Assembly: GCA_963697895.1 (NCBI GenBank) | Contig: OY969100.1 | Coordinates: 2,027,726 to 2,091,725 of the forward strand | Length of the DNA stretch: 64,000 bases | From: an uncultured Methanomicrobiales archaeon | GTDB lineage: Archaea > Halobacteriota > Methanomicrobia > Methanomicrobiales > Methanospirillaceae | Direction: 5' to 3' | Part shown: positions 4,175 through 51,343 of the stretch, piece by piece | Numbering within the stretch: position 1 is the first letter of the stretch | How the letters are laid out: the number at the start of each line of letters is the position of its first letter | The notes under the pieces: generated by a model | The model's input: only the letters and a program-made list of their open reading frames with translations | Told to the model about the DNA's origin: nothing | Databases searched by the model: none | Program-made: the position numbers and the translations under genes

Positions 4175-4179
4175 CGTAA

Positions 4180-4944: not shown

Positions 4945-4951
4945 TATTTCA

Positions 4952-5587: not shown

Positions 5588-5589
5588 GG

Positions 5590-6060: not shown

Positions 6061-6076
6061 TCGTATCCTGAGAGAT

Positions 6077-7384: not shown

Positions 7385-7540
7385 AAATTTTCCTCCAAAT
7401 AGTCTATTTCGCCACAATATACGTTACGTTTACTGAACACTGAGTGTGCTGGAATTGAACGCTGACAGGAGATGTCGGTGACTATGCACGTCCCCTCACG
7501 GGACATCAGATAATACTATATGTCGTGATATAAGTATTCC
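7385..7540 (-). promoter_or_regulatory. mcr promoter (BRE/TATA) and ~120-nt 5' leader
   Basis: Minus strand GGAATACTTATAT (TATA at 7528-7534), 7-bp hairpin at 7488-7506, and an AT-rich upstream block. Confidence 0.5.
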
Positions 7541-7835
7541 GATCTGCATTCAAATAATATTTTATATAATAGTATTAAAATATTTATGAAAATTAGGGGA
7601 ATATTCAAATATTAGATATATTTTTGGTTTCAAGTGTTTGGGGAGTATTACGATTTTTAAAAAATATGTGATATTATGTTATTGATATCGACAATTTTTC
7701 AGAAAATCCGTTGCGCTTCCCGCTTGGTGGGGAACACATTTTTCACCGATTTTTGAAGGAGATCGGGTAAGGATACAATGACATGTTCTTCAGCTGAATC
7801 AGTACCCACCCGGAGATGCCGCTCAAAAAAAAATA

Positions 7836-8636: not shown

Positions 8637-8648
8637 CTCCTCATCCCC

Positions 8649-10361: not shown

Positions 10362-10363
10362 CC

Positions 10364-11677
10364 TTATACCCCCTGCATTGCGGTAACCCGGTCGCGGACA
10401 CGGGTCAGGAACTCCACATCCGTAAGCATTCCTTCGGGCGGATCAACGACCTTGCGTGCCTCGATCGGCACATTATCCATCCGATAGCAGTTGCCTCCGA
10501 CCTCAACCCCGACAAATGCAACCGGTACATGCAGCTTTGACACTTCAGTGGTGGGCGTGATATGCGGATCGATAGCGACAGAGGGCAGCTTGGAGATCTG
10601 TTTTACCGAGCTGATCGGGAAGTGGGCACCGGGGTCGCTGCCGATCACGAAGACCGCGTCCACTTCGCCTCTCCGGAGGAGGTCATTGGAACTGCTGTCA
10701 CCGGGGTTGTACCGGGCAAATCCCCGGGATAAATCCACACAGTACGGGAAGCCGAACTGCCAGCCGAGTACCTGGCCGGAACCGGTGACATTATAATGAC
10801 CACGCATCGCAATGATGCTGAATTTTGTATATTCGTTCATATCCTTGGTAACCATGATCGCTTCATCGATGTTGTGATTTTTGCCAAGCGACTGTGTTAC
10901 CCCCATCCCGAAGAAGATGACTCCGAACCGGCCGCTCTTGAGCATCTCCACGGCTTCGTATATCTTTTCCTTCGGAATGCCGGCTACTATATCAGGCAGG
11001 GTTTCGCCCCGGATTGCAACACGGAAGGCATCGAGAAGTTCATAGTCACGTCCCTGCTCTATCTGCAGGTGAATATCCGCCATCTTTGCGGTATCTGTGT
11101 TTCTCGGGTCGACCACGACCAGTTTCCGGTTTTTATGTCCTTTGTTTACAAAGAAGCCCCGCGGGAAGATAGAATACCGGGCCATATGGCGCGGATGTGC
11201 ATGAGTAGGGTTGGACCCCCAGAAAATGATGCGGTCAGCACGGTTTTTAACCTCTCCCAGTGTGCAGCTCGGGATCCCCACGTCCTGAATTGCGAGCAGG
11301 GATGAGCCGTGACACACCGTCGCAGTGTTATCCACGACGGCCCCGACCTTCTCCGCGATCTCGTGACCGATACTCTGGGCATCGCAGCTCGTCGAGCTCC
11401 ATCCATACATGAGCGGCTTTTTCGATTTTACCAGCATCTGTGCGGTATATTCGACCGCTTCATCATAGGATACTTCCTTGTACGAACCGTCCGGCTGCTG
11501 CATCCGGGGACGCGTAATCCGGTCAGTTGCCTGGGAATGAAGGAACTTCGACGCACCGATCACGCATGCATTATAGACATCTTCGATCTTTTTGCCGTCG
11601 TCGGAGACAACGATCTCCAGATCATCGCAAAGAGTCCCGCAGAACGGGCAAATTACATCGGGTACTGTCTTTGACAT
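10364..11677 (-). CDS. fwdB: Formylmethanofuran dehydrogenase subunit B (Cys form)
   Basis: CPFCGTLCDD, ATVCHG and MRGHYNV. Confidence 0.98.
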   Translation of the reverse strand: MSKTVPDVICPFCGTLCDDLEIVVSDDGKKIEDVYNACVIGASKFLHSQATDRITRPRMQQPDGSYKEVSYDEAVEYTAQMLVKSKKPLMYGWSSTSCDAQSIGHEIAEKVGAVVDNTATVCHGSSLLAIQDVGIPSCTLGEVKNRADRIIFWGSNPTHAHPRHMARYSIFPRGFFVNKGHKNRKLVVVDPRNTDTAKMADIHLQIEQGRDYELLDAFRVAIRGETLPDIVAGIPKEKIYEAVEMLKSGRFGVIFFGMGVTQSLGKNHNIDEAIMVTKDMNEYTKFSIIAMRGHYNVTGSGQVLGWQFGFPYCVDLSRGFARYNPGDSSSNDLLRRGEVDAVFVIGSDPGAHFPISSVKQISKLPSVAIDPHITPTTEVSKLHVPVAFVGVEVGGNCYRMDNVPIEARKVVDPPEGMLTDVEFLTRVRDRVTAMQGV

Positions 11678-12078
11678 CAGATCTCACCTCTGCACTTCTT
11701 CTGGACCAGTTCTATGGAATTCAGCACGGGTTCATTCATTGCAACTTCCACCTCGATAGGAGTTCCCTTGAAGGTAGGCATACCGGTGGAATAGGTGTTC
11801 GGGTTGACGACCGAATTTGCCCAGGGCCCCATCGGGATGTAACCGAGGCCGGGATGCGGCCCCTGTGTCGTCTCGATCGCCTTTACCACCACACTTCCGA
11901 ACTCACTGGTAACCCGCACATTGGTATTGCGCCAGGCACCCAGTTTCCGGAAGTCTGCGATATCCAGCTCGATGATGCCGCACGCTTTTCGATAGGCATC
12001 TTTCTCCTTACCGCCCTCCATGGCGACGCCCTGCTGGATCGAGCGCCCCGAAATAAGATTCAGCGAAATTTTAGCCAC
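11677..12078 (-). CDS. fwdD: Formylmethanofuran dehydrogenase subunit D
   Basis: GRSIQQG and IPMGPWAN...GMPTFKG; GTG start. Confidence 0.96.
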   Translation of the reverse strand: MAKISLNLISGRSIQQGVAMEGGKEKDAYRKACGIIELDIADFRKLGAWRNTNVRVTSEFGSVVVKAIETTQGPHPGLGYIPMGPWANSVVNPNTYSTGMPTFKGTPIEVEVAMNEPVLNSIELVQKKCRGEI

Positions 12079-12092
12079 GCTCCTTTCCTCCC

Positions 12093-12518
12093 TTATCTGG
12101 TCAGATCGGGGAGCGGGCTCGGGCCGAGATCGCGGACGGTCTTGATCACATCATCAACCACTTTTGCCCACTTCGCTCCCTCAGATGCCGATACGAATGT
12201 CATCCGGAGCCGCTTATCTTCAAGACCAATGTTCCTCAGGAGGCTCTTTAAGATGAACATCCGTTTTGCGGCTTTATAGTTCCCTTCAAGATAATGACAG
12301 TCCCCGAAATGGCACCCGGAGACGAGAACACCATCTGCACCATCACTGAACGCCTTCAGGATGAAGAGCGGGTCGACACGACCGGTGCACATGACACGGA
12401 CGATCCGGATGTCCGGCTGATACTGGGTCCGGGCACTTCCGGCCAGGTCTGCACCGGCATAAGAGCACCAGTTGCAGACGATACCGAGGATTTTGGGTTT
12501 CCACTCTGGATCTGCCAT
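12093..12518 (-). CDS. mvhD: MvhD/FlpD [2Fe-2S] subunit
   Basis: CNWCSYAGAD, VMCTGRV and GCHFGDCHY. Confidence 0.97.
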   Translation of the reverse strand: MADPEWKPKILGIVCNWCSYAGADLAGSARTQYQPDIRIVRVMCTGRVDPLFILKAFSDGADGVLVSGCHFGDCHYLEGNYKAAKRMFILKSLLRNIGLEDKRLRMTFVSASEGAKWAKVVDDVIKTVRDLGPSPLPDLTR

Positions 12519-14626
12519 TACTTCGCACCTCCCAGGAGGAAAGCGTCAATCTGTGCCACGATCTGCGGGGTTGCAAAGTGCTGCATCCATATTGCGCCAC
12601 CCGGGCAGAATCCGCCGCAGGTACCACAGCCTTTGCATTTAGCCTCCGTGACCTGCATCACTTTTCGTCCGTCTTTCTCGACGAGGGAAAGCGCATTGTA
12701 CGGGCAGAGGTTCACGCACATACCACATCCGGCACATTTCTCCTCCATACACTGGGCGAAGTAGGGTTCGAGCTCGACTTCCCCCCGCTGGATCGGGATA
12801 CTTGCCGCCGATGCGGCTCCCTCCGCGGAGGCGACGGTATCGGGGATATCCTTCGGTCCCTGGCAGACACCGGCAAGGAATACTCCGGCCGTGGTTGTTC
12901 CGCAGGGGTTCAGCTTGGGGTGTGCCTCCATGAGCCATCCGTCCATGGAACAGGAGACCCCGAAGAGTTTCCTGGTCCGGTCCGTATCCGAGGAAGGCTG
13001 GACTGCGGCAGCAAGCACCACAAGGTCAGCATCGAGCCTCATCGGACGGTCGAGGAGCGTGTCGTCTGCGATGACGGTGAGATTCTTGCTCTCTGCATCC
13101 TCGAGGATATTCGATACCCGGCCACGGATGAATTTCGCTCCTTCATCCTGGATCCGGTAATAGAACTCCTCGTACATCTTGCCGAATGACCGGATATCCA
13201 TGTAGAATATATATGGTTGTACACCCGGGATCTTCTCGATGATCTGGTGTGCATGCTTCAGGGAATACATGCAGCAGAACCGGGAACAGTATGGTTTTCC
13301 GACTCCGGTGTTGTCACGGGACCCTGCACAGAGGATGAACGCGACCTTCTTCGGAGTCACCCCATCGCTCGGGCGGACCAGGTGGCCGCCGGTCGGTCCG
13401 GATGCACAAATGAGCCGCTCGAATTCAAGGCTCGAGATCACATTATCGAACTTCTTGTACCCCCATTCATCCTTCTTCTCGATGGGGAAGATGTCATAGC
13501 CGAGTGCCAGGATGGCGGTCCCGACCTTGACTTTAACGAACGAATCCTCCTGCTCGAGTTCGATTGCCTTCTTGTCGCCGCAGGCGGTGACACAAAGGCC
13601 GCACTTTATACAGGAGTCCTTGTCGACGGTATAAATGAGCGGGACAACCTGTGGGTGGTTGATATAAATCGCCTTCCGCGGCTTCATCCCCATCTCAAAC
13701 TCGTTCGGCTGGATCACCGGACATACCGGGTCACAGTCACCGCAGCCGTTGCAGCCACCTCCAACGATGCCCTTAGCTTCCGCCTCTGCCGGGGTGAGCA
13801 CACCGCGGGCTTTCTTCCGGAGTGTCACATCGAAATTACCGATATACCCCTCCACAGAGTCTACCTCGGTATAGGTCATGAGCTCGATGTTTTCCGACCT
13901 TCCGACATCCACCATCTTCGGGGTGAGGATACACTGGGAACAGTCCAGGGTCGGGAAAGTCTTGTCCAGCTGGGACATGCGTCCGCCGATCGTCGGGCTC
14001 TTTTCGATCAGATAGGTCTTGATGCCTGCATTTGCAAGATCGAGTGCCGCCTGCATACCGGCGATACCTGCACCGACCACCATTGCCGCCCGTTCTACGG
14101 GGACAGCCTTCGGAATCAGGTCCTCAAGCAGGGAGGCCTTGGCAACCGCAATCCTTACGGCGTCCTTTGCCTTATCTGTGGCGCCCTCGCGGTCATGCAT
14201 ATGTACCCAGGCGTTCTGCTCACGGATATTGGCCATCTCAAAGCGGAAAGGGTTGATACCTCCTTCCTTGGTTGCGGTCCTGAATGTCGGTTCATGGAGC
14301 CGGGGAGAACATGCCGCAACAACCGTGCCAGTGAGGTTATGTTCCTTTATTGCGTCCTCGATGATCTTCTGACCGGGGGTCGAACAGACATACTGGTAAT
14401 TTGCCACGAAGGCTACATTCGGGAGTGTCTTCGCATAATCCTGGACAGCATTGATGTCGATCGAACCCGCGATGTTCGTTCCACAGTGACAGATGAAGAC
14501 ACCGATCCGCGCCTCTTTCGTATCCGGAGACCGCTTTATTGCCGGTGCCGCTTTCGCTTTCACTTCCGCCTTTTGTTCCTTCTTCGATGCAGTTGATTCT
14601 TTCTTTGATTTTTTCGCTTCGGCCAT
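12518..14626 (-). CDS. hdrA: Heterodisulfide reductase subunit A
   Basis: CHCGTNIAG, ACSPRLHE, GAGIAG FAD motif, DKTFPTLDCSQCI, CSRFCC and C-terminal ferredoxin. Confidence 0.98.
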   Translation of the reverse strand: MAEAKKSKKESTASKKEQKAEVKAKAAPAIKRSPDTKEARIGVFICHCGTNIAGSIDINAVQDYAKTLPNVAFVANYQYVCSTPGQKIIEDAIKEHNLTGTVVAACSPRLHEPTFRTATKEGGINPFRFEMANIREQNAWVHMHDREGATDKAKDAVRIAVAKASLLEDLIPKAVPVERAAMVVGAGIAGMQAALDLANAGIKTYLIEKSPTIGGRMSQLDKTFPTLDCSQCILTPKMVDVGRSENIELMTYTEVDSVEGYIGNFDVTLRKKARGVLTPAEAEAKGIVGGGCNGCGDCDPVCPVIQPNEFEMGMKPRKAIYINHPQVVPLIYTVDKDSCIKCGLCVTACGDKKAIELEQEDSFVKVKVGTAILALGYDIFPIEKKDEWGYKKFDNVISSLEFERLICASGPTGGHLVRPSDGVTPKKVAFILCAGSRDNTGVGKPYCSRFCCMYSLKHAHQIIEKIPGVQPYIFYMDIRSFGKMYEEFYYRIQDEGAKFIRGRVSNILEDAESKNLTVIADDTLLDRPMRLDADLVVLAAAVQPSSDTDRTRKLFGVSCSMDGWLMEAHPKLNPCGTTTAGVFLAGVCQGPKDIPDTVASAEGAASAASIPIQRGEVELEPYFAQCMEEKCAGCGMCVNLCPYNALSLVEKDGRKVMQVTEAKCKGCGTCGGFCPGGAIWMQHFATPQIVAQIDAFLLGGAK

Positions 14627-14640
14627 TTTCGTCTCCTCCA

Positions 14641-15537
14641 TCACAGGATCTTCTGCAGGAACGGCTCGCAGCTGATCGCATGGAGATCCAGTGCAAGTTC
14701 CTGCGGGGTCATTCCCTGGGCGAGCCCGAGCAGTTCATTGTAGTGCAGGACGGGAAGGTCATAGCTCACGCCAAACTTTTCCTTTATTTCAATCTGTCCG
14801 CGGTCGAACTGAAGCTGACAGAACGGACAGATATCAGTGAGTGCATCGATGCCCATCTTGGACAGCGTGATCAGTTTCTCGTTGGCAATATCGAGTGCGT
14901 GAACAATATCATAACCGCGGACACCACCACCGGCGCCACAACAGAGCATCTTGTTCCGGTATTCCACCGGCTCTGCGCCGAGGGCCGCGACCATCTCTTC
15001 GATCCAGACCGGGTGCTCTGTGGTTCCGAAGTGACGCTCTTTCCGGGGTTTCATCAGGTGGCAGCCATAATGCACCGCGATTCGGGTGCCCGTGAGCGGG
15101 TTCGTCACACTGTCCCGGATCTTTTTAACACCGACGATCTTCGGGTCGTATAAGAGTTCTGCAAGGTGGTAGACCTCAATGGAGCCCTTATATTCCATAT
15201 CGATCTCTTTCAGTACCTCATTGACCCCGTCACGAAGCTCTTCGTTGTGCTTGAGTTTATGGTTCACTTCCCAGATGGACTTATAGCAGCCATTGCAGAT
15301 CAGAGCGATATCCTTCTTCATCTGTTCCGCAAGCACGATATTCCGGGCAGCCATCGCATACCATACATTCAGGTCAATCGATCCAAACGCACCTGGTGCG
15401 GGGCAGCAGCTGGCGCCCTCGAGGTCCAATAATTTGATCCCGAGCTTCTCCGAGGTCCGGTACGATGCCGCTTCGGAGCCGGGGTACCGGTTGGGTGCGA
15501 TGCATCCGAGATAAAACGCGTATTCGTGCATCAGCAT
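14641..15537 (-). CDS. hdrB: Heterodisulfide reductase subunit B
   Basis: Two CCG-type domains: SCCPAPG, HYGCH, CCGAGGG and CPFCQLQFD. Confidence 0.98.
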   Translation of the reverse strand: MLMHEYAFYLGCIAPNRYPGSEAASYRTSEKLGIKLLDLEGASCCPAPGAFGSIDLNVWYAMAARNIVLAEQMKKDIALICNGCYKSIWEVNHKLKHNEELRDGVNEVLKEIDMEYKGSIEVYHLAELLYDPKIVGVKKIRDSVTNPLTGTRIAVHYGCHLMKPRKERHFGTTEHPVWIEEMVAALGAEPVEYRNKMLCCGAGGGVRGYDIVHALDIANEKLITLSKMGIDALTDICPFCQLQFDRGQIEIKEKFGVSYDLPVLHYNELLGLAQGMTPQELALDLHAISCEPFLQKIL

Positions 15538-16119
15538 TCACCCCTCTCGTTCCTTAACAATTCTGTCTGCATTCTTCTTCAGCTCGAAATGATCAAGGAT
15601 CTTCTGGATACCCTTGATATAATCGGGTCTCCCGTGTGTTGTCGGGGGGTCTGCGGGAAGACCGAGTTTCACGCGTGCCGCCCTGTTGACATCATTGTTC
15701 GGCACGCCATGGCCCGTGGTATAAATCGCCTGTACCGTCTTCAAGAAATTGACCGGTATGATATCGCGCTTGAATGCGAGATTCCTCATGGCCATGATCA
15801 CATCGGTTGGTGCGATATCCCTCGGGCACCGGTCTGTACAGCTGTAACAGGTTGTGCAGAGCCAGAGGTCCGGGTCAACAAGTGCTTCATTTTCGAGCCC
15901 GAGCAATGCTCTCCGGACAAACTTACGGATTCTATAGGAGCTTCGGGGTGCAGAAGGACATGATGCGGTACAGGTCCCGCACTGGTAGCACATGTGTGGA
16001 ATGGTCATCGAGATCTTTTCCACGGTCTTCGTGAACGCGGGGTTCGAGTCCTCATCGTATAAATTGCGGTCCTTCAGTTTGTTTTCGAGTGCTTCAGGGT
16101 AACCTTTGGTTTTTGCCAT
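15538..16119 (-). CDS. hdrC: Heterodisulfide reductase subunit C
   Basis: CYQCGTCTASCP and WLCTTCYSCTDRCPR. Confidence 0.97.
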   Translation of the reverse strand: MAKTKGYPEALENKLKDRNLYDEDSNPAFTKTVEKISMTIPHMCYQCGTCTASCPSAPRSSYRIRKFVRRALLGLENEALVDPDLWLCTTCYSCTDRCPRDIAPTDVIMAMRNLAFKRDIIPVNFLKTVQAIYTTGHGVPNNDVNRAARVKLGLPADPPTTHGRPDYIKGIQKILDHFELKKNADRIVKEREG

Positions 16120-16129
16120 GTCTCATTCC

Positions 16130-17293
16130 TCACGCCTTCTCCGTAACCTTGAGTTGCACCTCTCCCGGCGTCTCTTCTTTCACCTTGGAAGTCCGGGGTG
16201 TGCAGAGCTTCTCTTTGATCTTATTGTACAGATCCGTCTCTTTACCGGTGATTCGAATGCCTGTCCGGTGAAGGAGAATGATATCCTCACCTGGACATGC
16301 ATTCACGCACGCACCACAAAGAATACAGAGATCTTTGTTCACCGCAATGGTCGGCTCTATCTGGCCTTTCATCTCGGCTGCCGGTTTGGAGCTCGGGAGG
16401 TAAATGGCATTTGCAGGACAGATCTCTACGCAGGTGGAACAGCCACCGGGGCATTTTTCCGCATGGAATTCGATATCGCCCTCAAAGATCTTTTCAACGG
16501 TGATCGCCTCGGTCGGGCAGTTCCGGGAGCACCAGGTGCAGGTACAACAGAGATCCTTGTCGATGTCGACTTTACCGGGCATCTTGTCGCTCTCGATCTG
16601 CCGTTCGACGGTGATACATTCCTCCGGGCACATCTCGACACAGACCATGCATGCATCGCATTTGCTCTCATCCCAGACGACTTCTCCCTGAATATTTCCG
16701 GATTCGGCTGTGAACTCCTTGTGTTTCACATCGATCGCCGGGCAGAGTGCTCCACAGATCCCGCAGAGCGTGCATTTCTCCATATCCACCTTGAATGTGG
16801 TTTTGCTGGTCAGTGCCGTCTGCCGGTCCTTGGCGCCTTCAGCAGCGCCTTCGAACTCGGGGACATTTCTGATGATCGCATCACGCGGGCAGACCTCGTC
16901 ACAGATGGTGCATTTCACGCATTTTTCGTCGCTGATTTCTGCAACGATATTGTACTGTGGGAATCCCTCCTTCTCGATAATGGGAAGGCGTTCCTCGTTA
17001 TCCACTTTGAGCGTCAGTGCATTGAACGGGCACATGATTACACAGACGCCACAGTAAACGCATTTTGTCTCATCGATATCGACCGGAGCCGCATATTCGA
17101 CCACTCCCCGCTTGGTTGCCCCGACGAGCCCGAGGGCAATCGCATCTTCAGGGCATGCCTCAACGCAGACCCCGCACCCCGTGCATACCTCTGCGTTCAG
17201 AATCAGGTCTGAAACTTGCTGGAGAAGCCGCTGCTCTCCGGTAACATTCACACCTTCCCGTTTCTTGGAATATTTAGGATAAATCGTTGTCAT
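16130..17293 (-). CDS. fwdF: Polyferredoxin FwdF
   Basis: Eight CxxCxxCxxxCP-type motifs; position in the operon. Confidence 0.93.
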   Translation of the reverse strand: MTTIYPKYSKKREGVNVTGEQRLLQQVSDLILNAEVCTGCGVCVEACPEDAIALGLVGATKRGVVEYAAPVDIDETKCVYCGVCVIMCPFNALTLKVDNEERLPIIEKEGFPQYNIVAEISDEKCVKCTICDEVCPRDAIIRNVPEFEGAAEGAKDRQTALTSKTTFKVDMEKCTLCGICGALCPAIDVKHKEFTAESGNIQGEVVWDESKCDACMVCVEMCPEECITVERQIESDKMPGKVDIDKDLCCTCTWCSRNCPTEAITVEKIFEGDIEFHAEKCPGGCSTCVEICPANAIYLPSSKPAAEMKGQIEPTIAVNKDLCILCGACVNACPGEDIILLHRTGIRITGKETDLYNKIKEKLCTPRTSKVKEETPGEVQLKVTEKA

Positions 17294-17325
17294 GCAGGTA
17301 CCTCACATTCCTTCACGCTCATTCA

Positions 17326-17589
17326 TCACACCTTTGCCTCTGACATCACGGAACCACGACCTTCCAGCCGGATGACATCATGTGGACATGCTTCGACGCA
17401 TACACCGCACCCCGCGCAGAGCTCTGACTTGAAATCAATCACCATGGATTTTCCATGGCGTACCTTGTAGATCTTCTCATTTGTGACAGGATCTATGGTA
17501 TAGAGTTCAAGCGCATCGACAGGACATGCGACCACACAATTACCGCAGCCAGTACAACGTTCCATGTTTACGTGCACTGCAAATGCCAT
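17326..17589 (-). CDS. fwdG: Ferredoxin-type subunit FwdG
   Basis: CTGCGNCVVACP and CAGCGVCVEACP. Start at MAFAVHVN. Confidence 0.9.
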   Translation of the reverse strand: MAFAVHVNMERCTGCGNCVVACPVDALELYTIDPVTNEKIYKVRHGKSMVIDFKSELCAGCGVCVEACPHDVIRLEGRGSVMSEAKV

Positions 17590-18346
17590 GTTTTTATCAC
17601 GCACCAGATTGGATCGATTAAAAAATCGACTAAAGAAGAATGGTTAACTAATGTAGATAAACTCTTCTGATTTCTCCCTGTTATGACGGCAATTTGGGCG
17701 GGTATGATTAATTATTTGTTTTTATTTAGTAAATAAGTTAACTGAAATACCATAAAATACGCCGGAGACCCCTGCGTTCATCAGGTGCTTTCATTCATTT
17801 CAGTCATAGAATAAAAATCTGTTGGTCTTTTCCTTCTTTTTGTAAAGGAGGGTTATATAGTTGTCTTTTGTGAAATTATTACGTAATATCTAGGTACTCG
17901 GGAAAAAAATCGGGAAATCTTTTAGATTATTTTCGTCATTCCTGAATCCTGTCGTCCCTTCATTTCCCTATTCTAATCCCCGTTTTTATCCGCGTATGGT
18001 TAATGCTTTGATATTGACATAACTGGATTCTCACTCGGGAGACGGGTAGATTAACGGTACGATTTCTGGTTCGATTCCGGATCGGGTTGAATTCCGCGGT
18101 CTCATTCCGGAAAAACTGCAATTGGTTTTCGGCAAAACCGGGATAGGGGTATGATCCTGTTATTGATCCACACCCCGGATATTTCTGCAAAGAATATGGA
18201 GAACCGGGATTCGTCAGGGGATTTTCGGGTTTTCACTTTTTTTTATTTTCTCGGGTTTGATCCATCCGGAGTCCGCTAGGAGAATCGCAATAAGAAAAAG
18301 TTATTTTCATCGCTTACCGTACCTCCTGATGAAACGAGGTTGTGAA
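17590..18346. promoter_or_regulatory. Divergent AT-rich control region for the fwd-hdr operon and ftr
   Basis: About 750 bp, AT-rich, several TATA-like boxes, no credible ORF. Confidence 0.55.
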
Positions 18347-19375: not shown

Positions 19376-20269
19376 ATGGCGAATATCCCTGATCCCTATC
19401 TCATTCGCTATCCGCAGATTGTGGCAGTTGCTGATGAGGCAGATGCCCGGATTGAGCTCATCGAATTTTTCGAATGTACCGGCGGGGCGATGTGGTCAAA
19501 GTACCACTACATTCAGAGTCCACTGGTCGAGTCGGTGCGGCATGTCGGGGGGACCATCCGGTATATGCTGAAAACGGGAGCGGTAGATCTCGCACTGGAG
19601 GGATCCCGATTCCCTGCAGGGATATCGGGGGCCTCTGTCAGCAACGACGAGATCATCATCAGCTATATCGGCATCGGCGGGGGTGGCGTCGGTGCTGCGG
19701 GATGCAGGGCAAATGCGGGGGGTGTGCTCCGGTGCGAAAGCGACCCTTCAGGGGGAGGACGACAGGCTGGTGCAACGATCTGGCTTCCAAGGCAGACACG
19801 GGTCCTGATCGGGATCGATGACACGGATACCCCTGAACAGGGAGCTACCTGGACGCTGGTGCATAATATCGCGAAGGCAGTGGAAGATTGTGCGACCCGT
19901 TATCTCTCGCACACTATTGTACAGCTCTATCCCGTGCCGTACCGGACCAAGAACTGCGTCAGTCTGGTATGTGAATTCGCTTCATCCGACCCCCTGACGC
20001 TTATAGAACGGTTTCGACAGCTCCTGGAACGGTATACCCTGTCAGACGAGACGGGTATGGCGGTGTTCAGCGGTTTCGATCCGTCTTTTCTGTATCCATT
20101 TGGAAGGAAAGTGAAATGTGGAGAAATCTCCCGGGATCTCCTGATGGAGATACGGGACCCGAGACTCCGCATCATGATGAATGGCCGCGGTATTATCGGG
20201 GCGGTCGCGGCAATACCGTTCTATACCCGGTATGAGGAGGCGCTTGCACTGTGCGATGGGTCGAGCTGA
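19376..20269 (+). CDS. Methanogenesis marker protein 11 (C-terminal TiaS-like GIDDTD domain)
   Basis: ECTGGAMW, GGGGVGAAGCR, IGIDDTDT.EQGATW, HTIVQLYP..RTKNC and GIIGAVAA. Confidence 0.85.
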   Translation: MANIPDPYLIRYPQIVAVADEADARIELIEFFECTGGAMWSKYHYIQSPLVESVRHVGGTIRYMLKTGAVDLALEGSRFPAGISGASVSNDEIIISYIGIGGGGVGAAGCRANAGGVLRCESDPSGGGRQAGATIWLPRQTRVLIGIDDTDTPEQGATWTLVHNIAKAVEDCATRYLSHTIVQLYPVPYRTKNCVSLVCEFASSDPLTLIERFRQLLERYTLSDETGMAVFSGFDPSFLYPFGRKVKCGEISRDLLMEIRDPRLRIMMNGRGIIGAVAAIPFYTRYEEALALCDGSS

Positions 20270-21222
20270 AAGCGGCGCTGCTCTCCCGGGGGACGGCCCG
20301 CCTGACCGGTGCGCCGGCAGATGCATATATAGCCCGCTCCGCGGCCGGCCCCGGGGCGGGAGGTTCAGGATCGGTTTTTTTTTCCCTGGACAACCGGTGC
20401 GTACGCCTTGCCGTAGATCCGAACAGCAGTATTCTCATCAACCATCAGGGATGCGGAAAGGCAGTGCTCGTTATGGACGGGAATACGTGGTATGGCAGGC
20501 TGGAACCAATCGGTCTCCATTGTCCCCGACAGGCATACATCACGATAAGCGGCAGCTGCATCTACCATTGCCGGTACTGCCCTGTCCCGGCACAGGGAGG
20601 AAGGAGGAAATCAGTGAATGAGATAGTGGAGATGGTCAGTGTGGCGAAGGATCGCATCGATGCTATCGCTATTACGAGTGGTGTCGCGACAGCGATCCGG
20701 GAGGAGGAGGTGTACATGATTTCGGTGATAAAAGCACTCATTCCACTGGGCATCCCGATGGGGGTATCGATATACCCTACACCGGAGACTCCCCGCCTTC
20801 TCCATGAACTGGGGGTCGTGGAGGTCAAATTCAACCTCGAAACGGCGACCCCGGAACTCTTTACACGCCTCTGCCCCGGTCTTGACCGGGACCTGATGTG
20901 GCTGGTACTGAAAGAATCGGTGGATCTCTTCGGTCGGGGGCATGTCTTCTCCAACGTGATCATTGGACTCGGGGAATCCGACGAGGAGATGCGCTCCTGC
21001 ATACGCGCCCTGACGGCCATCGGGGTGATTCCGGTGTTGCGACCCCTGAACCCCGCGGCCGAACTCTCGGGATTTTCGCGTCCTTCACCAGAACGGCTGA
21101 TGCGGCTTGCGGATTTCCACCAAAGAGCGCTTGAAGAGGCAGGACTGGATCCCTGTCAGGCAATTTCGATGTGCACCGCCTGTACCGGGTGCGACCTGGT
21201 ACCCGGGAGGGATATTCCATGA
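20251..21222 (+). CDS. Radical SAM protein, biotin-synthase-related, function unknown
   Basis: CIYHCRYC (CxxxCxxC), NLET, IIGLGESD and C-terminal CTACTGC. Confidence 0.9.
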   Translation: MRWVELKAALLSRGTARLTGAPADAYIARSAAGPGAGGSGSVFFSLDNRCVRLAVDPNSSILINHQGCGKAVLVMDGNTWYGRLEPIGLHCPRQAYITISGSCIYHCRYCPVPAQGGRRKSVNEIVEMVSVAKDRIDAIAITSGVATAIREEEVYMISVIKALIPLGIPMGVSIYPTPETPRLLHELGVVEVKFNLETATPELFTRLCPGLDRDLMWLVLKESVDLFGRGHVFSNVIIGLGESDEEMRSCIRALTAIGVIPVLRPLNPAAELSGFSRPSPERLMRLADFHQRALEEAGLDPCQAISMCTACTGCDLVPGRDIP

Positions 21223-22490
21223 GAGGAGAGGAGGCGATCGCAGAGGCGCTCATGATCTCTGCCGATCGTTGGTACAGTGTCCCGGGGTTTCCTATCACGG
21301 GTCTCGGTGATCGGGTGGGTGCAGAAATGGTCATCAATGAGAAGACAGCGCTTGAGTATGCGCTCGGAGATTCTCTTACGGGACGAAGAGCGGCCATCAT
21401 TGTCAAGAATGTAGGGTTGAATGCATGTGCCGACCCGCTCCTGCAGGCGACGGCACAGGGGCTCATCCGCGGGGTCGTTATTGTTGCGGGGGACGATCCC
21501 GATGCACAGGGATCCCAGACCGCCCAGGACTCGCGATACTACGGAGAACTCGGGGAACTACCGGTGATAGAACCGGACGTAAGAACCTGTTATACGGGTG
21601 TGGAAGCGGCGTTCCAGGCATCGGAGCAGTTTTCACGTGTTGCGATAGTGCGCATCACCCCGGGGATCCTCGGTACGGTCGTCGATCGGCATCCCGTCGA
21701 ACGGCAGGATCGGAATGGCAGGTTGTCCGACCGATCATGGACAATGCAGGGGCGGGTGACAGCCGCTGAAGAACTGTACCGGACGATGTTCACCTGGTCT
21801 TCCCGCTCTCCCCTGAACCGGTGGGAGGGGGATCCGGCAGGGGTAGGTGCGGCAGAAGGAAGGACCCGGATCGTGACGGTTCACCCCATGCCGGAGCAGG
21901 CTGCCGGAATACCGGTGGTGCATGAATCCGGGCGGAGTTTTGTCCGGGACCACCGGGGGCTTCCGCCCCCGGAACCGCAAAAAAGCCCGGAAAAACGGAA
22001 GGACAGAGGATATTACCGGACCTTCTGTGCATCGTGTCCGTTCAGACCCCTGCTGGATATCCTCAAAGAAACAGATATTCAGGTGATCTGTGATGCGGGG
22101 TGTTCGGTGCTCGCGATGACCCCTCCCTATGAAATGGGCGTGGCCAGTTACGGGATGGGTGCGAGTATCGCCGTTGCCGCGAGAAGCACGGGGGTTGCTC
22201 TGATTGGTGACTACGCTATTCTCCATTCGGGAATAAACGCACTTATTGACGTATATGAGAAGAGAATTCCCCTGTTATGTATCGTGATGAAGAACCGATG
22301 TACAGCAATGACCGGAAAGCAGCCGATCCCGGATTCGATCCCTTATCTTGCCTGGGCAAAACCGGTCATCTGTGATGCGGATGACGAGGGCCGGCTGCGG
22401 ATGGTCATCAGACGCCCTGAAATGCCGGGAACCGTGATCGTAGAAGGCGAGTGTCCTGTCGGGGCCACGCACGCATTCGTGGAATGTTAA
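21219..22490 (+). CDS. TPP-dependent enzyme, truncated IorA-like (no C-terminal ferredoxin domain)
   Basis: VPGFP, NEKTALE, KNVGLN..ADP, GDDP..SQ..QDSR, FCASCP, DAGC and the TPP motif IGD...HSG...N..TAMTG. Confidence 0.85.
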   Translation: MRGEEAIAEALMISADRWYSVPGFPITGLGDRVGAEMVINEKTALEYALGDSLTGRRAAIIVKNVGLNACADPLLQATAQGLIRGVVIVAGDDPDAQGSQTAQDSRYYGELGELPVIEPDVRTCYTGVEAAFQASEQFSRVAIVRITPGILGTVVDRHPVERQDRNGRLSDRSWTMQGRVTAAEELYRTMFTWSSRSPLNRWEGDPAGVGAAEGRTRIVTVHPMPEQAAGIPVVHESGRSFVRDHRGLPPPEPQKSPEKRKDRGYYRTFCASCPFRPLLDILKETDIQVICDAGCSVLAMTPPYEMGVASYGMGASIAVAARSTGVALIGDYAILHSGINALIDVYEKRIPLLCIVMKNRCTAMTGKQPIPDSIPYLAWAKPVICDADDEGRLRMVIRRPEMPGTVIVEGECPVGATHAFVEC

Positions 22491-22535: not shown

Positions 22536-23666
22536 ATGAAGCCGTGGAATATTGAGATCTGTGATGTAACGTTGAGAGACGGTGAACAGACTCCGGGGGT
22601 GTCGTTCACCTGTGAGGAGAAAGTGAAGATCGCCGGAGTGCTGGACGAGATCGGAATCGACGTCATCGAGGTGGGATTTCCGGTCGTTTCTCCGTACGAA
22701 AAACACTGCGTGACAGCGATCGCTCACCTGGGACTGGATGCCCGCATCTGCTGCCTTGCCCGTGCACGAAAAGTGGATGTGGAGCAGGCGATCGACTGTG
22801 ACGTCGGGATGGTGAGCATCTTCATCGCTACATCTGACCTCCATATCCGGCATAAATATAAGAAACCCCGCGAACAGGTGGTTGGTGAAGCGCTGGAACT
22901 GATCGAATTCGCGCACGATCATGGTGTGGAGGTACGGTTCGCGGCCGAGGATGCATCCCGGACCGACCCTGTCTTCCTCGGGGAAGTGTACCGGCAGGGG
23001 CAGGAATACGGCGCCGACCTGCTTTCTTTCGCCGATACCGTCGGATGCCTTACGCCCCTGGATATGTACCGGATCATGCTGGAACTGGTCTCCGCTCTCG
23101 ATCGACCGCTCTGTGCACACTGCCACAACGATATGGGATGTGCGACGGCAAACACGATCACCGCCGCAGAGGCCGGGGCGTTCCAGCTGCATACAACGGT
23201 AAATGGTATCGGGGAACGTGCCGGCAATGCAGCGCTCGAAGAGGTGCTGGTCGCTGTCAGGATGCGTGGCGGAGTGGACCGGTATGATCTTTCTTATCTC
23301 ACGGGTCTTTCACGGCTTGTCGAAGAGTATTCCGGGATACGGATTGCCAAGACCAAACCGGTCGTCGGTGAACATGCCTTCTCGCACGAGAGCGGGATCC
23401 ATATCGCGGCAATCCTCGAAGATCCATCCACCTATGAATATATCCCCCCTGAACTCGTAGGAGGCGAACGCCGGTTTATCCTTGGAAAACATACGGGAAA
23501 GAAGGCGCTCGAATATGTGGTCTCGACCCTCGGATATCAACTTGATGAAAAGCAGATATGCCGGGTTCTTGACGAAGTAAAGGAGCTTGGGGAGAGTAAA
23601 TGCGGGATAACTCCCGATACGCTCACCGCCCTTATACGCCATGTACAAAAGGAGCAGATCGGATGA
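22536..23666 (+). CDS. aksA: Homocitrate synthase family (2-oxoacid elongation)
   Basis: DVTLRDGEQTPG, HCHND, GERAGNA and HESGIH. Lacks the LeuA regulatory domain; clustered with aksDEF. Confidence 0.85.
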   Translation: MKPWNIEICDVTLRDGEQTPGVSFTCEEKVKIAGVLDEIGIDVIEVGFPVVSPYEKHCVTAIAHLGLDARICCLARARKVDVEQAIDCDVGMVSIFIATSDLHIRHKYKKPREQVVGEALELIEFAHDHGVEVRFAAEDASRTDPVFLGEVYRQGQEYGADLLSFADTVGCLTPLDMYRIMLELVSALDRPLCAHCHNDMGCATANTITAAEAGAFQLHTTVNGIGERAGNAALEEVLVAVRMRGGVDRYDLSYLTGLSRLVEEYSGIRIAKTKPVVGEHAFSHESGIHIAAILEDPSTYEYIPPELVGGERRFILGKHTGKKALEYVVSTLGYQLDEKQICRVLDEVKELGESKCGITPDTLTALIRHVQKEQIG

Positions 23667-24874
23667 GCACTCTTTCGGAACGGATCCTCTGCGGCACGGC
23701 AGGCGAGTATGTGGACCGGCATGTCGACCGTGCGTACGTGCATGACGGAACAGGGGTGCTGACCCTGGATGCATGGCGGAGATTGGGAGAGATGCCCGTG
23801 GCTTATCCGGAACAGTGTGCAATCATCTTTGATCACATCGTTCCGGCAAATACTGCCACGACAGCGATACTGCAAGCGGAGCTCCGTGAATTTGCCTCCT
23901 GTACCGGTATCCGGTTCTCTGAAATCGGTGGCGGGATCTGCCACCAGGTCATGAGCGAGGGAGAGGTGCTGCCCGGTGAGGTGGTGGTGGGCGCCGATTC
24001 CCACACCTGCACCCTCGGGGCCTTCGGTGCGTTTGCAACCGGTGTCGGGGCGACGGACATGGCCGCAATCTGGGCATCAGGCTCCACCTGGTTCCGGGTT
24101 CCCGAGACACTCGCGATCCGGCTGTTGGGGAGGCTCACGGCTCCGGCCGAGCCAAAGGATCTCGCCCTAAAGTACGTCGGGCTCCTTGGGATGGATGGCG
24201 GGGCATACCGGGCGCTCGAATTCGTGGGGGAAGGCGTGGAGAGCATATCGATGGACGGCAGACTCACCCTGTGTAACCTGGCGGTTGAAACCGGTGCGAA
24301 GACCGGGCTCTTTTACGCGGACGGCACGACATGCCGGTATCTCGAGAGGTACGGGCAGACAATCCAACCCCAGGTCCCACAGGACTGCTGTTATGAGCGT
24401 GAGTATCCGATCGAGTGCAGCGAGATCGTTCCTCTGATTGCCATCCCGCCGCGGGTGGATACCATTCGTCCCGTAAGCGATCTAGCAGGTCTCGGAATCG
24501 ACCAGGTTCTGGTGGGAACGTGCACAAACGGCCGCTTTGAAGATCTTGAGCGATTTGCACGGATCGTCCGGGGCAGGAAGGTTGCAGTCAGAACAATTGT
24601 TGCACCCGCCTCCCGCGAAATTCTGGAGAACGCAATCCGAACAGGGGTACTCGCCGATATCGTTGCAGCAGGCTGCACGATCATCACCCCGGGCTGCGGA
24701 CCCTGTCTCGGTGCCCATGCAGGGGTGATCGGGGAGGGGGAGATCTGCCTTTCCACGGCAAACCGGAATTTCCGGAACCGGATGGGTGTCGGAGGGGATA
24801 TATACCTCTCGTCGGTCGCCACCGCAGCGGCGAGCGCTTTGACCGGGGAAATCACCGAACCGGAGGTTTGCTGA
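23663..24874 (+). CDS. aksD: Homoaconitase large subunit
   Basis: GICHQ, GADSHTCT, GTCTNGR, PGCGPCLG and STANRNF. Confidence 0.82.
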   Translation: MSTLSERILCGTAGEYVDRHVDRAYVHDGTGVLTLDAWRRLGEMPVAYPEQCAIIFDHIVPANTATTAILQAELREFASCTGIRFSEIGGGICHQVMSEGEVLPGEVVVGADSHTCTLGAFGAFATGVGATDMAAIWASGSTWFRVPETLAIRLLGRLTAPAEPKDLALKYVGLLGMDGGAYRALEFVGEGVESISMDGRLTLCNLAVETGAKTGLFYADGTTCRYLERYGQTIQPQVPQDCCYEREYPIECSEIVPLIAIPPRVDTIRPVSDLAGLGIDQVLVGTCTNGRFEDLERFARIVRGRKVAVRTIVAPASREILENAIRTGVLADIVAAGCTIITPGCGPCLGAHAGVIGEGEICLSTANRNFRNRMGVGGDIYLSSVATAAASALTGEITEPEVC

Positions 24875-25344
24875 TGCGGATGGAAGGAACGGCGATCTGC
24901 CTCGGGCCGGATATTGATACCGACCAGATCATTGCCGGGCGGTATCTCAGGACGAAGGATCGGCGGATATGGGCTCTGCACGTCTTTGAAGATCTCGATC
25001 CGGGTCTTGCAAACCGCCTGGATGGTGCCGTGATCATCGCCGGGAAAAACTTCGGCTGTGGGTCCTCACGTGAACAGGCTGCAATCGCCCTGAAAGAGGC
25101 GGGACTCAGGGGCGTTATTGCGCCGAGCTTCGCCCGGATATTTTTCCGGAATGCGATTAACATCGGGCTTCCCCTTGCCGAATGTTCCTGTTCCTGCGTT
25201 GAGGGGGCGTTCTTGAGCGCCGACCTCGGTTCAGGAATTGTCGAACTGAACGGGGAACGTTACCGAATCCGGCCACTATCGCCCCGTATGCTCGAAATTC
25301 TCACATCCGGAGGGCTGGTGGAATACTGGAGGGAGAGAGGGTGA
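24874..25344 (+). CDS. aksE: Homoaconitase small subunit
   Basis: IDTDQII, NFGCGSSREQA, and the YLRT loop typical of methanogen homoaconitase rather than LeuD. Confidence 0.87.
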   Translation: MRMEGTAICLGPDIDTDQIIAGRYLRTKDRRIWALHVFEDLDPGLANRLDGAVIIAGKNFGCGSSREQAAIALKEAGLRGVIAPSFARIFFRNAINIGLPLAECSCSCVEGAFLSADLGSGIVELNGERYRIRPLSPRMLEILTSGGLVEYWRERG

Positions 25345-26156
25345 TCTTTCCGCGAGAGTGTAAGGAGGTCGGCTATGCTTCGACAAAACCCTGTGGAGAC
25401 CGGACGTATTTCCTCTCGAGGTACCTGATCCATGAGACCCCTGCCGGAGATGAGATCCTCGAGGTAGAGCCTGACCCTGCCGGGACGGGATTGATGCGGG
25501 ACCTGATCAGAACCCGGGTGATTGCCACCGCTGGGGATGTCCACCGGCATCCTGAAAAGGTGAACCTGTATGACCGTGCGCGTCTCGTACGGATTGCGTC
25601 CGAAAGCGGGTACAGGTGCACGATATTTTCCGGACGGGATGAACATACTACGTTTGTGCTTGATTCCGATCTCTCCTCTTTCCTTACGGTCCACGTCTAT
25701 GATAATTTTCCCCCGCTGCCGGCCCTCTCGTCCGCCATCTGCGAACAGGAGGCGTGCGGGCTATACGGGGAACTCGACATTCTCTTCGAACATCATGTGC
25801 AGGATGTCGGAAGGAGGGCCGCCGACGTCTTCCCCTGCAGGGCTGCCGGCTTCTCGCGGACGCTCGACGCGGACCGGATGCAGGGGGGGGAGCGCATGGC
25901 AGGGTGCCTGACCGGGGCCCAGCTGTATCGTGAATGTTACGACGGGGAATTCACTCTGGAGGATATCTGCCCGGTCTCTTCGGTAATGTCAGAGCCCTTC
26001 ATCACCCGCTGCTGCCGAAGCGAGCGTGAAGGGACAGGGATCCACCATGGGCGGTTCGGTACGATCGTTCACTGGGGTGCCAGTCCATGTACAATTCTCC
26101 GGGCAGTCCACGAGGTGGTTCGGGGGTGGAGGGAGCATGCAGATCGCGGTCGTTGA
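25341..26156 (+). CDS. Cys-rich hypothetical protein
   Basis: 271 aa, overlaps both neighbours. Motifs: CKEVG, PCG..YFLSRYL, FPCRA, GCLTG, ICP and RCCRSER. Confidence 0.8.
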   Translation: MIFPRECKEVGYASTKPCGDRTYFLSRYLIHETPAGDEILEVEPDPAGTGLMRDLIRTRVIATAGDVHRHPEKVNLYDRARLVRIASESGYRCTIFSGRDEHTTFVLDSDLSSFLTVHVYDNFPPLPALSSAICEQEACGLYGELDILFEHHVQDVGRRAADVFPCRAAGFSRTLDADRMQGGERMAGCLTGAQLYRECYDGEFTLEDICPVSSVMSEPFITRCCRSEREGTGIHHGRFGTIVHWGASPCTILRAVHEVVRGWREHADRGR

Positions 26157-27108
26157 GGGGGACGGTATCGGCCACGAAGTGGTACCGGTCGCACGGGATC
26201 TGCTTGCCGTGATGAGACCCGATTTTGAGTTTTTCCAGGTGGAGGTCGGGTTCGGACGGTGGGAGCGCGATGGTCACGCGATCACCGATGAAGACATCCA
26301 AATGCTGGGATCCGCGGATGCAATCCTGTTCGGGGCGGTGACGACCCCACCCACTCCCGAATACCGGAGTGTGGTGGTTCAGATCCGGAAGGCACTCGAT
26401 CTGTTCGCGAACGTCCGTCCTGTATCAGGGGACGATGTGGATCTGGTGATCGTCCGGGAAAATACCGAAGGGCTCTATACGGGGATCGAGACGATCGAGC
26501 CGGACCGGGCGACCACCCTCAGGGTGATAACCCGGAAGGGAACCGAGCGGATTGCCCGGTATGCCTGCGGTCTTGCCAGGCACCGGATGCACCTGACGAT
26601 CGGTCACAAAGCGAATGTTCTCAAATCCGATCTGTTCTTCCGGGGTATCTGCCTGGAGGAGGCAAATCTCGCTGACGTTCCCTGCGGGGAATGTCTCATC
26701 GATGCACTCTGCCTGGACGTTCTCCGCCATCCCCGGGCGTATGACGTGATCGTTACGTCGAACCTTTTTGGGGATATCCTCTCGGATGTCGCGGCATATC
26801 TGGTAGGTGGTCTGGGCATGCTCCCGAGCGCCAATATCGGTGATCGGCATGCCCTCTTTGAACCTGTACACGGGAGCGCCCCTGACATCGCAGGAAGGGA
26901 CCTTGCAAATCCTGTCGCTGCGATACGGAGTGGAGCGATGCTTCTCCGCCATCTTGGGGATGACGGGTCGGCAAGAATGGTCGAGGACGCAGTCACAAAA
27001 ACGCTTGCGCGTGGAGTAAAAACATGCGATATAGGTGGAAACGCAGGCACAAGGAGATTCGGGCGTGAGGTCCGCGATACATTGGCTTCAATGAAGCGAC
27101 CCGGATAA
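26137..27108 (+). CDS. aksF: Homoisocitrate/isopropylmalate dehydrogenase family
   Basis: GDGIGHEV, RENTEGLY, NLFGDILSD and EPVHGSAPDIAG; operon context. Confidence 0.82.
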   Translation: MQIAVVEGDGIGHEVVPVARDLLAVMRPDFEFFQVEVGFGRWERDGHAITDEDIQMLGSADAILFGAVTTPPTPEYRSVVVQIRKALDLFANVRPVSGDDVDLVIVRENTEGLYTGIETIEPDRATTLRVITRKGTERIARYACGLARHRMHLTIGHKANVLKSDLFFRGICLEEANLADVPCGECLIDALCLDVLRHPRAYDVIVTSNLFGDILSDVAAYLVGGLGMLPSANIGDRHALFEPVHGSAPDIAGRDLANPVAAIRSGAMLLRHLGDDGSARMVEDAVTKTLARGVKTCDIGGNAGTRRFGREVRDTLASMKRPG

Positions 27109-46219: not shown

Positions 46220-46282
46220 TATGAAACCCCCTACACACCACATACCAAATGGTTGTGAACCAGATAAGATTTGTCAAATGTG

Positions 46283-47407: not shown

Positions 47408-47449
47408 ATACACTCCTCAGGATCCACCGTATATAACCTCACCGTTCTT

Positions 47450-48280: not shown

Positions 48281-48368
48281 AGTACAATAGTCCTCCGGCA
48301 CTCTCTTATGACTTGCGTAAGGAGGGAAGAAAGCGGTAATTATCCCCGGATGATCGGAGTTTGCCTGG

Positions 48369-50169: not shown

Positions 50170-50186
50170 TCAGTTGATGCGCTTTT

Positions 50187-51341: not shown

Positions 51342-51343
51342 TG

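Follow-up and report, generated by a model that had tools for sequence, protein, structure and literature searches.

Coenzyme B serves as the electron donor of methyl-coenzyme M reductase and is needed by every methanogen and every methane-oxidizing archaeon. In the parallel pathway to coenzyme M, ComDE carries out a non-oxidative, thiamine diphosphate (ThDP)-dependent decarboxylation of a 2-oxoacid to an aldehyde, which is then thiolated to the methanogenic thiol coenzyme. Aldehyde formation also has a precedent in the superfamily of the 2-oxoacid:ferredoxin oxidoreductases (OFORs), where the pyruvate:ferredoxin oxidoreductase (POR) of Pyrococcus can release acetaldehyde non-oxidatively. For coenzyme B, the literature that we searched assigns genes only for chain extension (AksA, AksD/E and AksF) and none after 2-oxosuberate; the Aks enzymes are the only ones listed for this pathway, with suberate semialdehyde as an intermediate, by Kaster 2011 (PMC3087415, section 14.5). 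Here we focus on a gene at positions 21219-22490 of a 64,000-nucleotide stretch of contig OY969100.1 (assembly GCA_963697895.1) from an uncultured Methanomicrobiales archaeon, a stretch referred to below as the window. The gene is located directly before the aks genes and encodes a short relative of IorA, which an original prediction, made from the DNA sequence, had put forward as a 2-oxosuberate decarboxylase.

Our analysis indicates that this IorA-like protein is probably a non-oxidative 2-oxosuberate decarboxylase making 7-oxoheptanoate, a ThDP enzyme of IorA/OFOR descent, and that it is the best candidate to date for the decarboxylase of the coenzyme B pathway. Both the substrate and the non-oxidative outcome are what we infer from domain content and gene context. 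The non-oxidative reaction is favored because the protein has a full ThDP site and neither a CoA-binding nor a ferredoxin domain, and because the pathway needs an aldehyde. In the proposed mechanism, AksA, AksD/E and AksF, encoded directly downstream, would extend 2-oxoglutarate to 2-oxosuberate, the ThDP ylide would attack C2 of 2-oxosuberate, and CO2 would leave. Lacking an electron path and a CoA-binding gamma/IorB domain, the enzyme would have its enamine protonated instead of oxidized, and the 7-oxoheptanoate released would proceed to 7-mercaptoheptanoate and coenzyme B. In the literature outside subscription journals we found no paper that names a 2-oxosuberate decarboxylase or assigns either of two families encoded nearby, methanogenesis marker protein 11 (marker-11, TIGR03280) and DUF7714, and homologues of the IorA-like protein carry only the database names 'IorA' or 'thiamine pyrophosphate-dependent enzyme'.

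A short IorA-like protein with a complete ThDP site

The open reading frame spans 21219-22490 on the plus strand, with its TAA stop at 22488-22490; from the ATG at 21219 it encodes 423 amino acids, and from an alternative GTG at 21171, 48 nt further upstream, 439. The ATG overlaps the TGA of the preceding radical S-adenosylmethionine (SAM) gene as ATGA, and a GGGAGGGA box is located 7-14 nt 5' of it. Since the 120 best homologues listed (68-95% identity) are all 418-431 amino acids long, the start at 21219 is taken as the real one. Furthermore, the gene is no chance reading frame: 65 of 69 related loci show the same arrangement. It is the third of eight co-directional genes whose ends mostly overlap, in the order marker-11, radical SAM, IorA-like gene, aksA, aksD, aksE, DUF7714 and aksF; the aksA start at 22536 is 46 nt past its stop, which agrees with the position directly before aksA reported earlier.

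The length of about 423 residues, the pyrimidine- and ThDP-binding domains of IorA and the CASC/DAGC cysteines, all described in the original prediction, are borne out by an alignment that combines the protein, 17 relatives and three IorA sequences of full length, one of the latter from the same genome. The N-terminal pyrimidine-binding (PYR) domain comprises approximately residues 1-190 (21219..21790; this and the following features are on the plus strand), keeps the invariant columns N40-E41-K42 and D104-S105-R106, and matches the fold of OFOR alpha chains. The C-terminal diphosphate-binding (PP) domain, approximately residues 265-417 (22011..22469), is recognized by Pfam TPP_enzyme_C, matches the OFOR beta chain 5b48_B, and keeps the diphosphate/Mg motif G330-D331-Y332...N359; G330, D331, H336 and N359 are invariant across the aligned sequences, as is E41. 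Between the two domains, a short linker of about 70 residues (approximately 196-264; 21805..22010) takes the place of the deleted domain II and contains, by alignment and model, no TH3 domain. Here about 110 middle-domain columns are missing relative to canonical IorA and to relatives of about 500 amino acids, in line with the shortened middle region noticed before, and here the structure prediction has its lowest confidence.

Four cysteines of the protein align with invariant cysteines of canonical IorA: the pair C270-x-x-C273 (FCASCP; 22026..22037), invariant in the alignment including the three canonical sequences, C295 (DAGC; 22101..22103), and C412 (GEC; 22452..22454), located at the point from which canonical IorA continues into its ferredoxin domain. 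By analogy with OFORs, these residues may be the ligands of a ThDP-proximal cluster, a site that would be structural or redox-sensing rather than catalytic, and the protein itself would presumably be a homodimer. The absence of the C-terminal 2x[4Fe-4S] motifs could be confirmed, as the protein contains no CxxCxxCxxxC, has no Fer4 match and ends 11 residues after C412. None of the short or approximately 500-residue relatives contains the ferredoxin motif; the genome's canonical IorA does match Fer4. In Pfam, the protein matches TPP_enzyme_C alone (residues 309-369, 36 bits), with no match to TPP_enzyme_N, TPP_enzyme_M or Fer4. Against the NCBIfam model IOR_alpha (TIGR03336, cut-off 650.9 bits) it scores 154.8 bits in two stretches, compared with 821.2 for the canonical IorA of the genome. 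As a side observation, the protein and seven of ten short aligned relatives end in ...H-E-x-x-x-C, with cysteine at the very C-terminus; in the remaining three relatives, tyrosine takes this place.

A ferredoxin-less clade outside canonical IorA

A search of 1.84 billion cluster representatives returned 78 proteins at E <= 1e-30, which form three groups: a tight group of 370-425 amino acids; a group of approximately 480-530 amino acids with domain II but without the ferredoxin domain, whose source names include Methanotrichaceae, Methermicoccaceae, Methanosalsum and Methanolapillus; and canonical IorA of 550-650 amino acids. In a quick maximum-likelihood tree (IQ-TREE, LG+G4, 132 rows), from which proteins of fewer than 360 or more than 700 residues and three with broken C-termini were left out, 52 of the 132 rows, including the protein studied here, form one clade with an SH-aLRT support of 100, and the ferredoxin motif occurs in 0/52 of them. 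The protein is thus placed outside the canonical IorA clade. Its clade comprises a group of short Methanomicrobiales proteins (11 rows, itself with a support of 100), the methanogen group of about 500 residues, and several branches that lack the cluster cysteines. Compared with 34 ferredoxin-bearing IorA sequences, clade-specific residues are V21 (tyrosine in 100% of the canonical sequences), L/M313, GD[Y/F] in place of canonical GDS, and W-x-L-T-x-x-G-R/K at 172-179; in the protein itself this last motif reads W-x-L-T-x-x-G-R just upstream of the linker, T175 and G178 being specific to the clade.

The cluster cysteines are lost in L133/P0212 (L, P, G, f and g labels are our own handles for loci, proteins, genomes, families and genera), in P0153, in P0163 and in an eight-row branch (P0209, P0216, P0237, P0242, P0253, P0264, P0173 and P0198), one member of which is named by NCBI from Amycolatopsis. 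Furthermore, the McrA-positive genus g104 (L140-L142; G303, G311, G319) carries C273S and C412D in three of three genomes; its orthologues measure 597-617 amino acids by open frame and adjoin neither marker-11 nor aks genes, and its genomes carry McrA, marker-11 and DUF7714. C270 and C273 are invariant in all 19 fetched frames L114-L132. Regarding the cysteine-less branch, a metagenome scan with the L133 protein gave no loci, a scan with P0237 gave three short loci only, which are uninformative, and P0209 had no match in a plasmid collection. A 386-residue bacterial cluster (Ignavibacteriota) in the protein Atlas resembles this branch.

Gene context supports a link of the clade to 2-oxosuberate

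The association with the aks genes is found well beyond the window. Among 69 Methanomicrobiales loci, aksA follows the gene directly on its 3' side in 65, and the remaining four end before the aksA position; the radical SAM gene is upstream in 66, two further loci start within the IorA-like gene, and in one the upstream place is taken by marker-11. Twenty regions were taken from other families. In f10 (2/2) and f14 (3/3) the clade member abuts aksA, with aksD-E-F-DUF7714 alongside, and in f34 (1/1) it abuts aksA and aksD. Marker-11 is directly upstream of the clade member in f7 (8/8, from eight genera), f24 (3/3) and f30 (1/1). The radical SAM neighbor is missing beside the clade gene in f7, f10 and f24, and in f7 DUF7714 is encoded far from it. 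Because gene order differs between families, the association with aks genes exceeds inherited synteny.

A second and different context comes from genome G030, in which we found no McrA, no marker-11 match over the cut-off and no DUF7714. Here a single string on the minus strand (L133 8986-18911) encodes bioB, bioW, a bioU-like gene, bioF, bioD, aksA-, aksD-, aksE- and aksF-like genes and, at its end, a clade member of 476 amino acids with none of the four cysteines. The bioB, bioW, bioF and bioD products score 382.6 (cut-off 225), 240.6 (226), 437.7 (426) and 138.6 (83) bits, respectively; the BioU-like gene, at 342 bits, does not reach its cut-off of 600. The bio-aks arrangement recurs in another genome from the genus of G030, which does not count as independent. 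To our knowledge, apart from the Aks steps the routes to coenzyme B and to biotin have nothing in common but 2-oxosuberate and the C7 product of its decarboxylation. BioW uses free pimelate, and the string suggests an archaeal pimelate route that starts from 2-oxoglutarate. An IS605/TnpB-type gene follows the string (L133 7532-8830). Taken together, two contexts of independent kind, the adjacency to aks genes in Methanomicrobiales, f10, f14 and f34 and the bio-aks string, support the link to 2-oxosuberate that had been proposed for the protein.

The same contexts bear on whether the substrate could be another 2-oxoacid, such as 2-oxoadipate, 2-oxopimelate, sulfopyruvate or an arylpyruvate, with the aks adjacency reflecting a general clustering of methanogenesis genes. 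The window is indeed a dense methanogenesis island (mcr, fwd, hdr, ftr, mch, por), and the marker-11/radical SAM pair also occurs without the IorA-like gene and also beside YcaO/TfuA. However, adjacency to aks genes recurs in f10, f14, f34 and f19 despite an otherwise different gene order, and the bio string is consistent with a C7 product only. Two of the alternative substrates also have other enzymes at hand: a ComE-type sulfopyruvate decarboxylase (TIGR03846) is encoded elsewhere in the genome, over the cut-off (226.2 bits versus 221.5), the IorA-like protein is absent from the seven TIGR03846 matches of the genome at E <= 1e-5, and arylpyruvates could be handled by the canonical IorA/IorB pair. 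A different substrate is thus considered very improbable.

Partner genes in the genome

The genome, searched as one contig of 2.09 Mb, contains a single canonical IorA (821 bits), and an IorB-type gene with a gamma domain follows it 54 nt downstream. This only IorB-type gene thus belongs to the canonical IorA, and no iorB adjoins the IorA-like gene, as a search for a cognate iorB suggested with the original prediction has now made clear. The CoA-binding gamma domain is found neither in the protein nor beside its gene: the genome has six POR-gamma (PF01558) matches, each adjoining other OFOR genes in its own operon, and the nearest, porC, is about 31 kb away. The description of the protein as partner-less therefore holds with regard to IorB, as all gamma genes are accounted for, but does not extend beyond it, since marker-11 is a recurrent neighbor. 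BioF had no match in the genome at E <= 1e-5 and BioB none over its cut-off, so that no use for pimeloyl-CoA is visible.

Predicted structure

The AlphaFold2 model of the protein has a mean predicted local distance difference test (pLDDT) score of 88.4 and a predicted template modeling score of 0.91, with residues 205-214 below a pLDDT of 50. Residues 1-249 match OFOR alpha chains (6n2n, 5b47, 9bt4, 5c4i) with Z scores of 20-22 over 244-246 aligned positions, and for residues 265-417 the match is to the OFOR beta chain 5b48_B, with a Z score of 13.1; the OFORs match domain by domain only and not over the whole chain. The best whole-chain matches are decarboxylase-type ThDP enzymes (8x3x, 6lpi, 7pt1, 8zk6, 5npu), with Z scores of 25-27, 321-331 aligned residues, root mean square deviations of 3.2-4.3 Å and identities of 12-17%. 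As a control, a model of canonical IorA (pLDDT 86.8) was compared in the same way. It is most similar to OFOR alpha chains (Z 30-33), and it matches the same decarboxylase-type entries with Z scores of 23-26 across the PYR and PP domains. Because this control matches the same entries, the likeness to decarboxylases reflects the common ThDP core. In this comparison with IorA by structure prediction, which had been proposed for the protein, the relative arrangement of the PYR and PP domains is alike in both models. A sequence search of the Protein Data Bank (PDB) with the single protein gave no match, a profile search gave weak matches to oxalyl-CoA decarboxylase and HACL only (E ~1e-4), and Foldseek against pdb returned DC-family matches only, at high root mean square deviation.

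Distribution across Halobacteriota

The distribution of the clade was determined by profile search in 300 evenly drawn Halobacteriota genomes, and all counts in this section and the next are limited to that phylum; a match was scored as a single piece of at least 399 bits. Such matches occur in 122 genomes; this number includes the source genome and also G230, although the G230 protein is not a clade member. By family, they are found in f7 (37/37), f10 (22/24), f14 (15/15), f24 (8/8), f30 (1/1) and f34 (1/1), and in 36 of 47 Methanomicrobiales. The two f10 genomes without a match have completeness values of 60% and 78%. In the remaining 11 Methanomicrobiales, the match is split over two pieces. 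In five of these 11, which were rechecked, both pieces lie in one frame of 389-421 amino acids, with DUF7714 2.3-3.5 kb from the homologue in each; the idea that these genomes lack the gene is thus ruled out for the five, the split being one of the match within a single frame.

McrA is present in 166 of 301 genomes. DUF7714 occurs in all 12 families with a methanogen-type clade member and, in addition, in f28, which has none; the single McrA-positive f28 genome carries DUF7714 and no clade member. Forty-two McrA-positive genomes belong to families without a match to either the clade or DUF7714 (f8 (g21), f12, f15, f16, f20, f29 and f32), and these lineages must rely on another source of coenzyme B, whether made or acquired. 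Marker-11 had no match in G007 (f12) or G010 (f15); among the named controls it matched in both Methanocaldococcus jannaschii and Methanosarcina acetivorans.

Oxidative or non-oxidative decarboxylation

Several observations weigh against the proposed role as a non-oxidative decarboxylase or against its generality. The four cysteines are kept in most methanogen copies, although it is not obvious what a non-redox decarboxylase would need them for; none of the four varies in the 18 clade frames retrieved from McrA-bearing families. All four are also kept in g107, the sister genus of g104 (three of three genomes). Serine and aspartate can themselves ligate iron-sulfur clusters, and the loss of the cluster in g104 is for this reason not certain. 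In G030, the bio string contains no aldehyde dehydrogenase, and a direct oxidative product is conceivable there. The whole-chain likeness to decarboxylases was dropped as functional support, since the canonical IorA control matches equally well. As to distribution, 43 of the 166 McrA-positive genomes belong to families without a clade member (f8, f12, f15, f16, f20, f28, f29 and f32; five genomes rechecked), which have IorA of canonical length only, or none; because of these, the candidate enzyme cannot be the universal route. DUF7714, found in the control M. acetivorans, is not found in M. jannaschii.

The retained cysteines would be explained if the protein were a redox enzyme, in which the [4Fe-4S] site passes the electrons of hydroxyalkyl-ThDP to a docking partner (free ferredoxin, the neighboring radical SAM protein or a DUF7714 iron-sulfur protein) and the decarboxylation is oxidative, giving a pimeloyl product. 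The cysteines are common to canonical IorA, the protein descends from an oxidoreductase family, the radical SAM gene overlaps its start, and in G030 BioW needs pimelate in a string without an aldehyde dehydrogenase. Yet the CoA-binding gamma domain is lacking in and beside the protein, a pimeloyl product has the wrong oxidation level for 7-mercaptoheptanoate in the pathway as we know it, and neither BioF (at E <= 1e-5) nor BioB (over its cut-off), which might use such a product, came up in the source genome. Moreover, it is precisely the G030 protein, in a pimelate context, that lacks all four cysteines, and the radical SAM gene does not stand beside the clade member in f7, f10 and f24. We regard oxidative decarboxylation as unlikely. 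With regard to the term non-oxidative, the original prediction has less direct support than with regard to the substrate: the absence of the ferredoxin domain, of gamma/IorB and of domain II and the loss of the cysteines in several branches speak for it, and the invariance of the cysteines in most methanogen copies speaks against it.

Neighboring genes and the thiol-forming step

The string that contains the IorA-like gene begins with marker-11 (TiaS-like; 19376..20269, plus strand, as are all genes of the string), which scores 318.7 bits against the TIGR03280 cut-off of 255.8 and matches Pfam TiaS_TCKD. The radical SAM gene (20251..21222; PF04055) has weak LipS2, MSMEG_0568 and BioB-type matches far below their cut-offs. 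Downstream, aksA (22536..23666) encodes a homocitrate/(homo)n-citrate synthase type (HMGL-like, HCS_D2; LEU1_arch 442 bits), aksD (23600..24874) the large homoaconitase subunit HacA (hacA_fam 459.8 bits, over the cut-off) and aksE (24868..25344) the small subunit HacB (LEUD_arch 161.8 bits, over the cut-off). Between aksE and aksF is the DUF7714 gene (25341..26156; PF24830, 264.6 bits), a distant relative of the XcbA family (NF052538: E 7e-9, 35 bits, cut-off 150). The aksF-type homoisocitrate dehydrogenase gene (26026..27108) matches Iso_dh with 307.7 bits and AksF2_Meth with 315, the latter below a cut-off of 540; its real start is probably near 26137, because the family match begins at residue 38-39.

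XcbA, a [2Fe-2S] protein, forms coenzyme M by reduction of sulfoethanethioaldehyde (PMC9457059). By analogy, the step that forms the thiol of 7-mercaptoheptanoate has a candidate reductase in the DUF7714 protein. This leads to another possible role of the retained cysteines: the IorA-like protein could be a subunit of a late coenzyme B complex with the XcbA-like DUF7714 protein, and perhaps with marker-11 and the radical SAM protein, in which sulfur would be inserted and reduced in steps coupled to the decarboxylation on the enzyme, with the cluster relaying two electrons for the conversion of a thioaldehyde to the thiol. The occurrence of DUF7714 in all families with a methanogen-type clade member, its XcbA-family match, and the retention of the cysteines in methanogens, which require a reduction, as opposed to their loss in the biotin context, would all fit. 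Such a complex is nevertheless quite unlikely in our view, as g104 has DUF7714 yet altered cysteines, f28 has DUF7714 without a clade member, and the f7 copy is encoded far from the clade gene; in addition, others have proposed that the thiolation is carried out by MMP16 and L-ASST (bioRxiv 10.1101/2025.02.10.637553).

The marker-11/radical SAM pair is adjacent in two McrA-positive genomes without a clade member (L154 8992-10996 and L155 8899-10906), in the latter beside TfuA and YcaO of the McrA thioglycine system; the radical SAM proteins of both are homologous to that of the window, with 25-26% identity. The pair may thus serve the modification of methyl-coenzyme M reductase rather than coenzyme B synthesis, and because it also occurs without the IorA-like gene and beside YcaO/TfuA, its link to coenzyme B is speculative, as is the idea of marker-11 as a coenzyme B amide ligase or kinase. 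In many Methanomicrobiales, a second marker-11 paralogue (~174-212 bits, below the cut-off) is found directly upstream of marker-11, for example at G120:C1:2103568-2104437; the second marker-11 match of the source genome is a distant one (124 bits) and not this adjacent paralogue. The wider window encodes mcrBDCGA, fwdCAB, hdrA2-hdrB-hdrC, a polyferredoxin, ftr, mch, RFAP synthase, marker-12 and porCDAB, in gene blocks at 2474-17601 and 45272-56610.

The elements of this section can be joined with the decarboxylase function in a broader proposal, which is possible but which we hold only tentatively and think rather doubtful in its entirety. The string would be a near-complete coenzyme B operon, in which the IorA-like protein is a ThDP/[4Fe-4S] decarboxylase whose cluster feeds electrons to DUF7714 as the thiol-forming reductase, with marker-11 and the radical SAM protein possibly acting in a later step. 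The cluster-less relatives in the clade would provide the entry to a previously unrecognized archaeal pimelate route to biotin, which runs from 2-oxoglutarate through Aks.

Comparison with known systems

What would be new here, as judged from sequence, is a candidate ThDP decarboxylase of 2-oxoacids that has the scaffold of an oxidoreductase. A clonable candidate makes a long-standing gap in the coenzyme B pathway directly testable and offers a methanogen-specific target for methane mitigation. If the proposed function is true, an oxidoreductase scaffold has been turned into a decarboxylase, and for at least one lineage of archaea the source of the pimelate for biotin is explained. A second testable lead, to the thiol-forming step, comes from the DUF7714/XcbA-like gene, which is distributed along with the clade.

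Among the described ThDP enzymes, IorA (TIGR03336) is related through homologous PYR and PP domains, the catalytic glutamate, the GD...N motif and the four aligned cysteines. The IorA-like protein differs from it in its score (154.8 bits versus 650.9), in lacking domain II, the 2x[4Fe-4S] domain and IorB, in belonging to a separate clade, and in individual residues, with V21 where 34 of 34 canonical sequences have tyrosine and GD[Y/F] where they have GDS. With the OFORs more widely (PFOR, OGOR, OOR and the Sulfolobus OFOR) it shares the folds of domain I (Z 20-22) and domain VI (Z 13.1), but the CoA-binding domain III, the ferredoxin domain V and domain II are missing; it has at most one cluster site and thus no electron wire to the surface. 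ComDE would be its counterpart in role, an analogous function being proposed for the IorA-like protein, and belongs to an unrelated ThDP branch, with its ComE-type gene elsewhere in the genome. The pyruvate decarboxylase-type enzymes (PDC, KivD/KdcA, IPDC, AHAS and 2-hydroxyacyl-CoA lyase), finally, resemble the protein in whole-chain fold, as they do the IorA control to an equal degree, and in the proposed chemistry; it differs from them in its identity of only 12-17%, in having no middle TH3 domain, and in matching neither TPP_enzyme_N nor TPP_enzyme_M.

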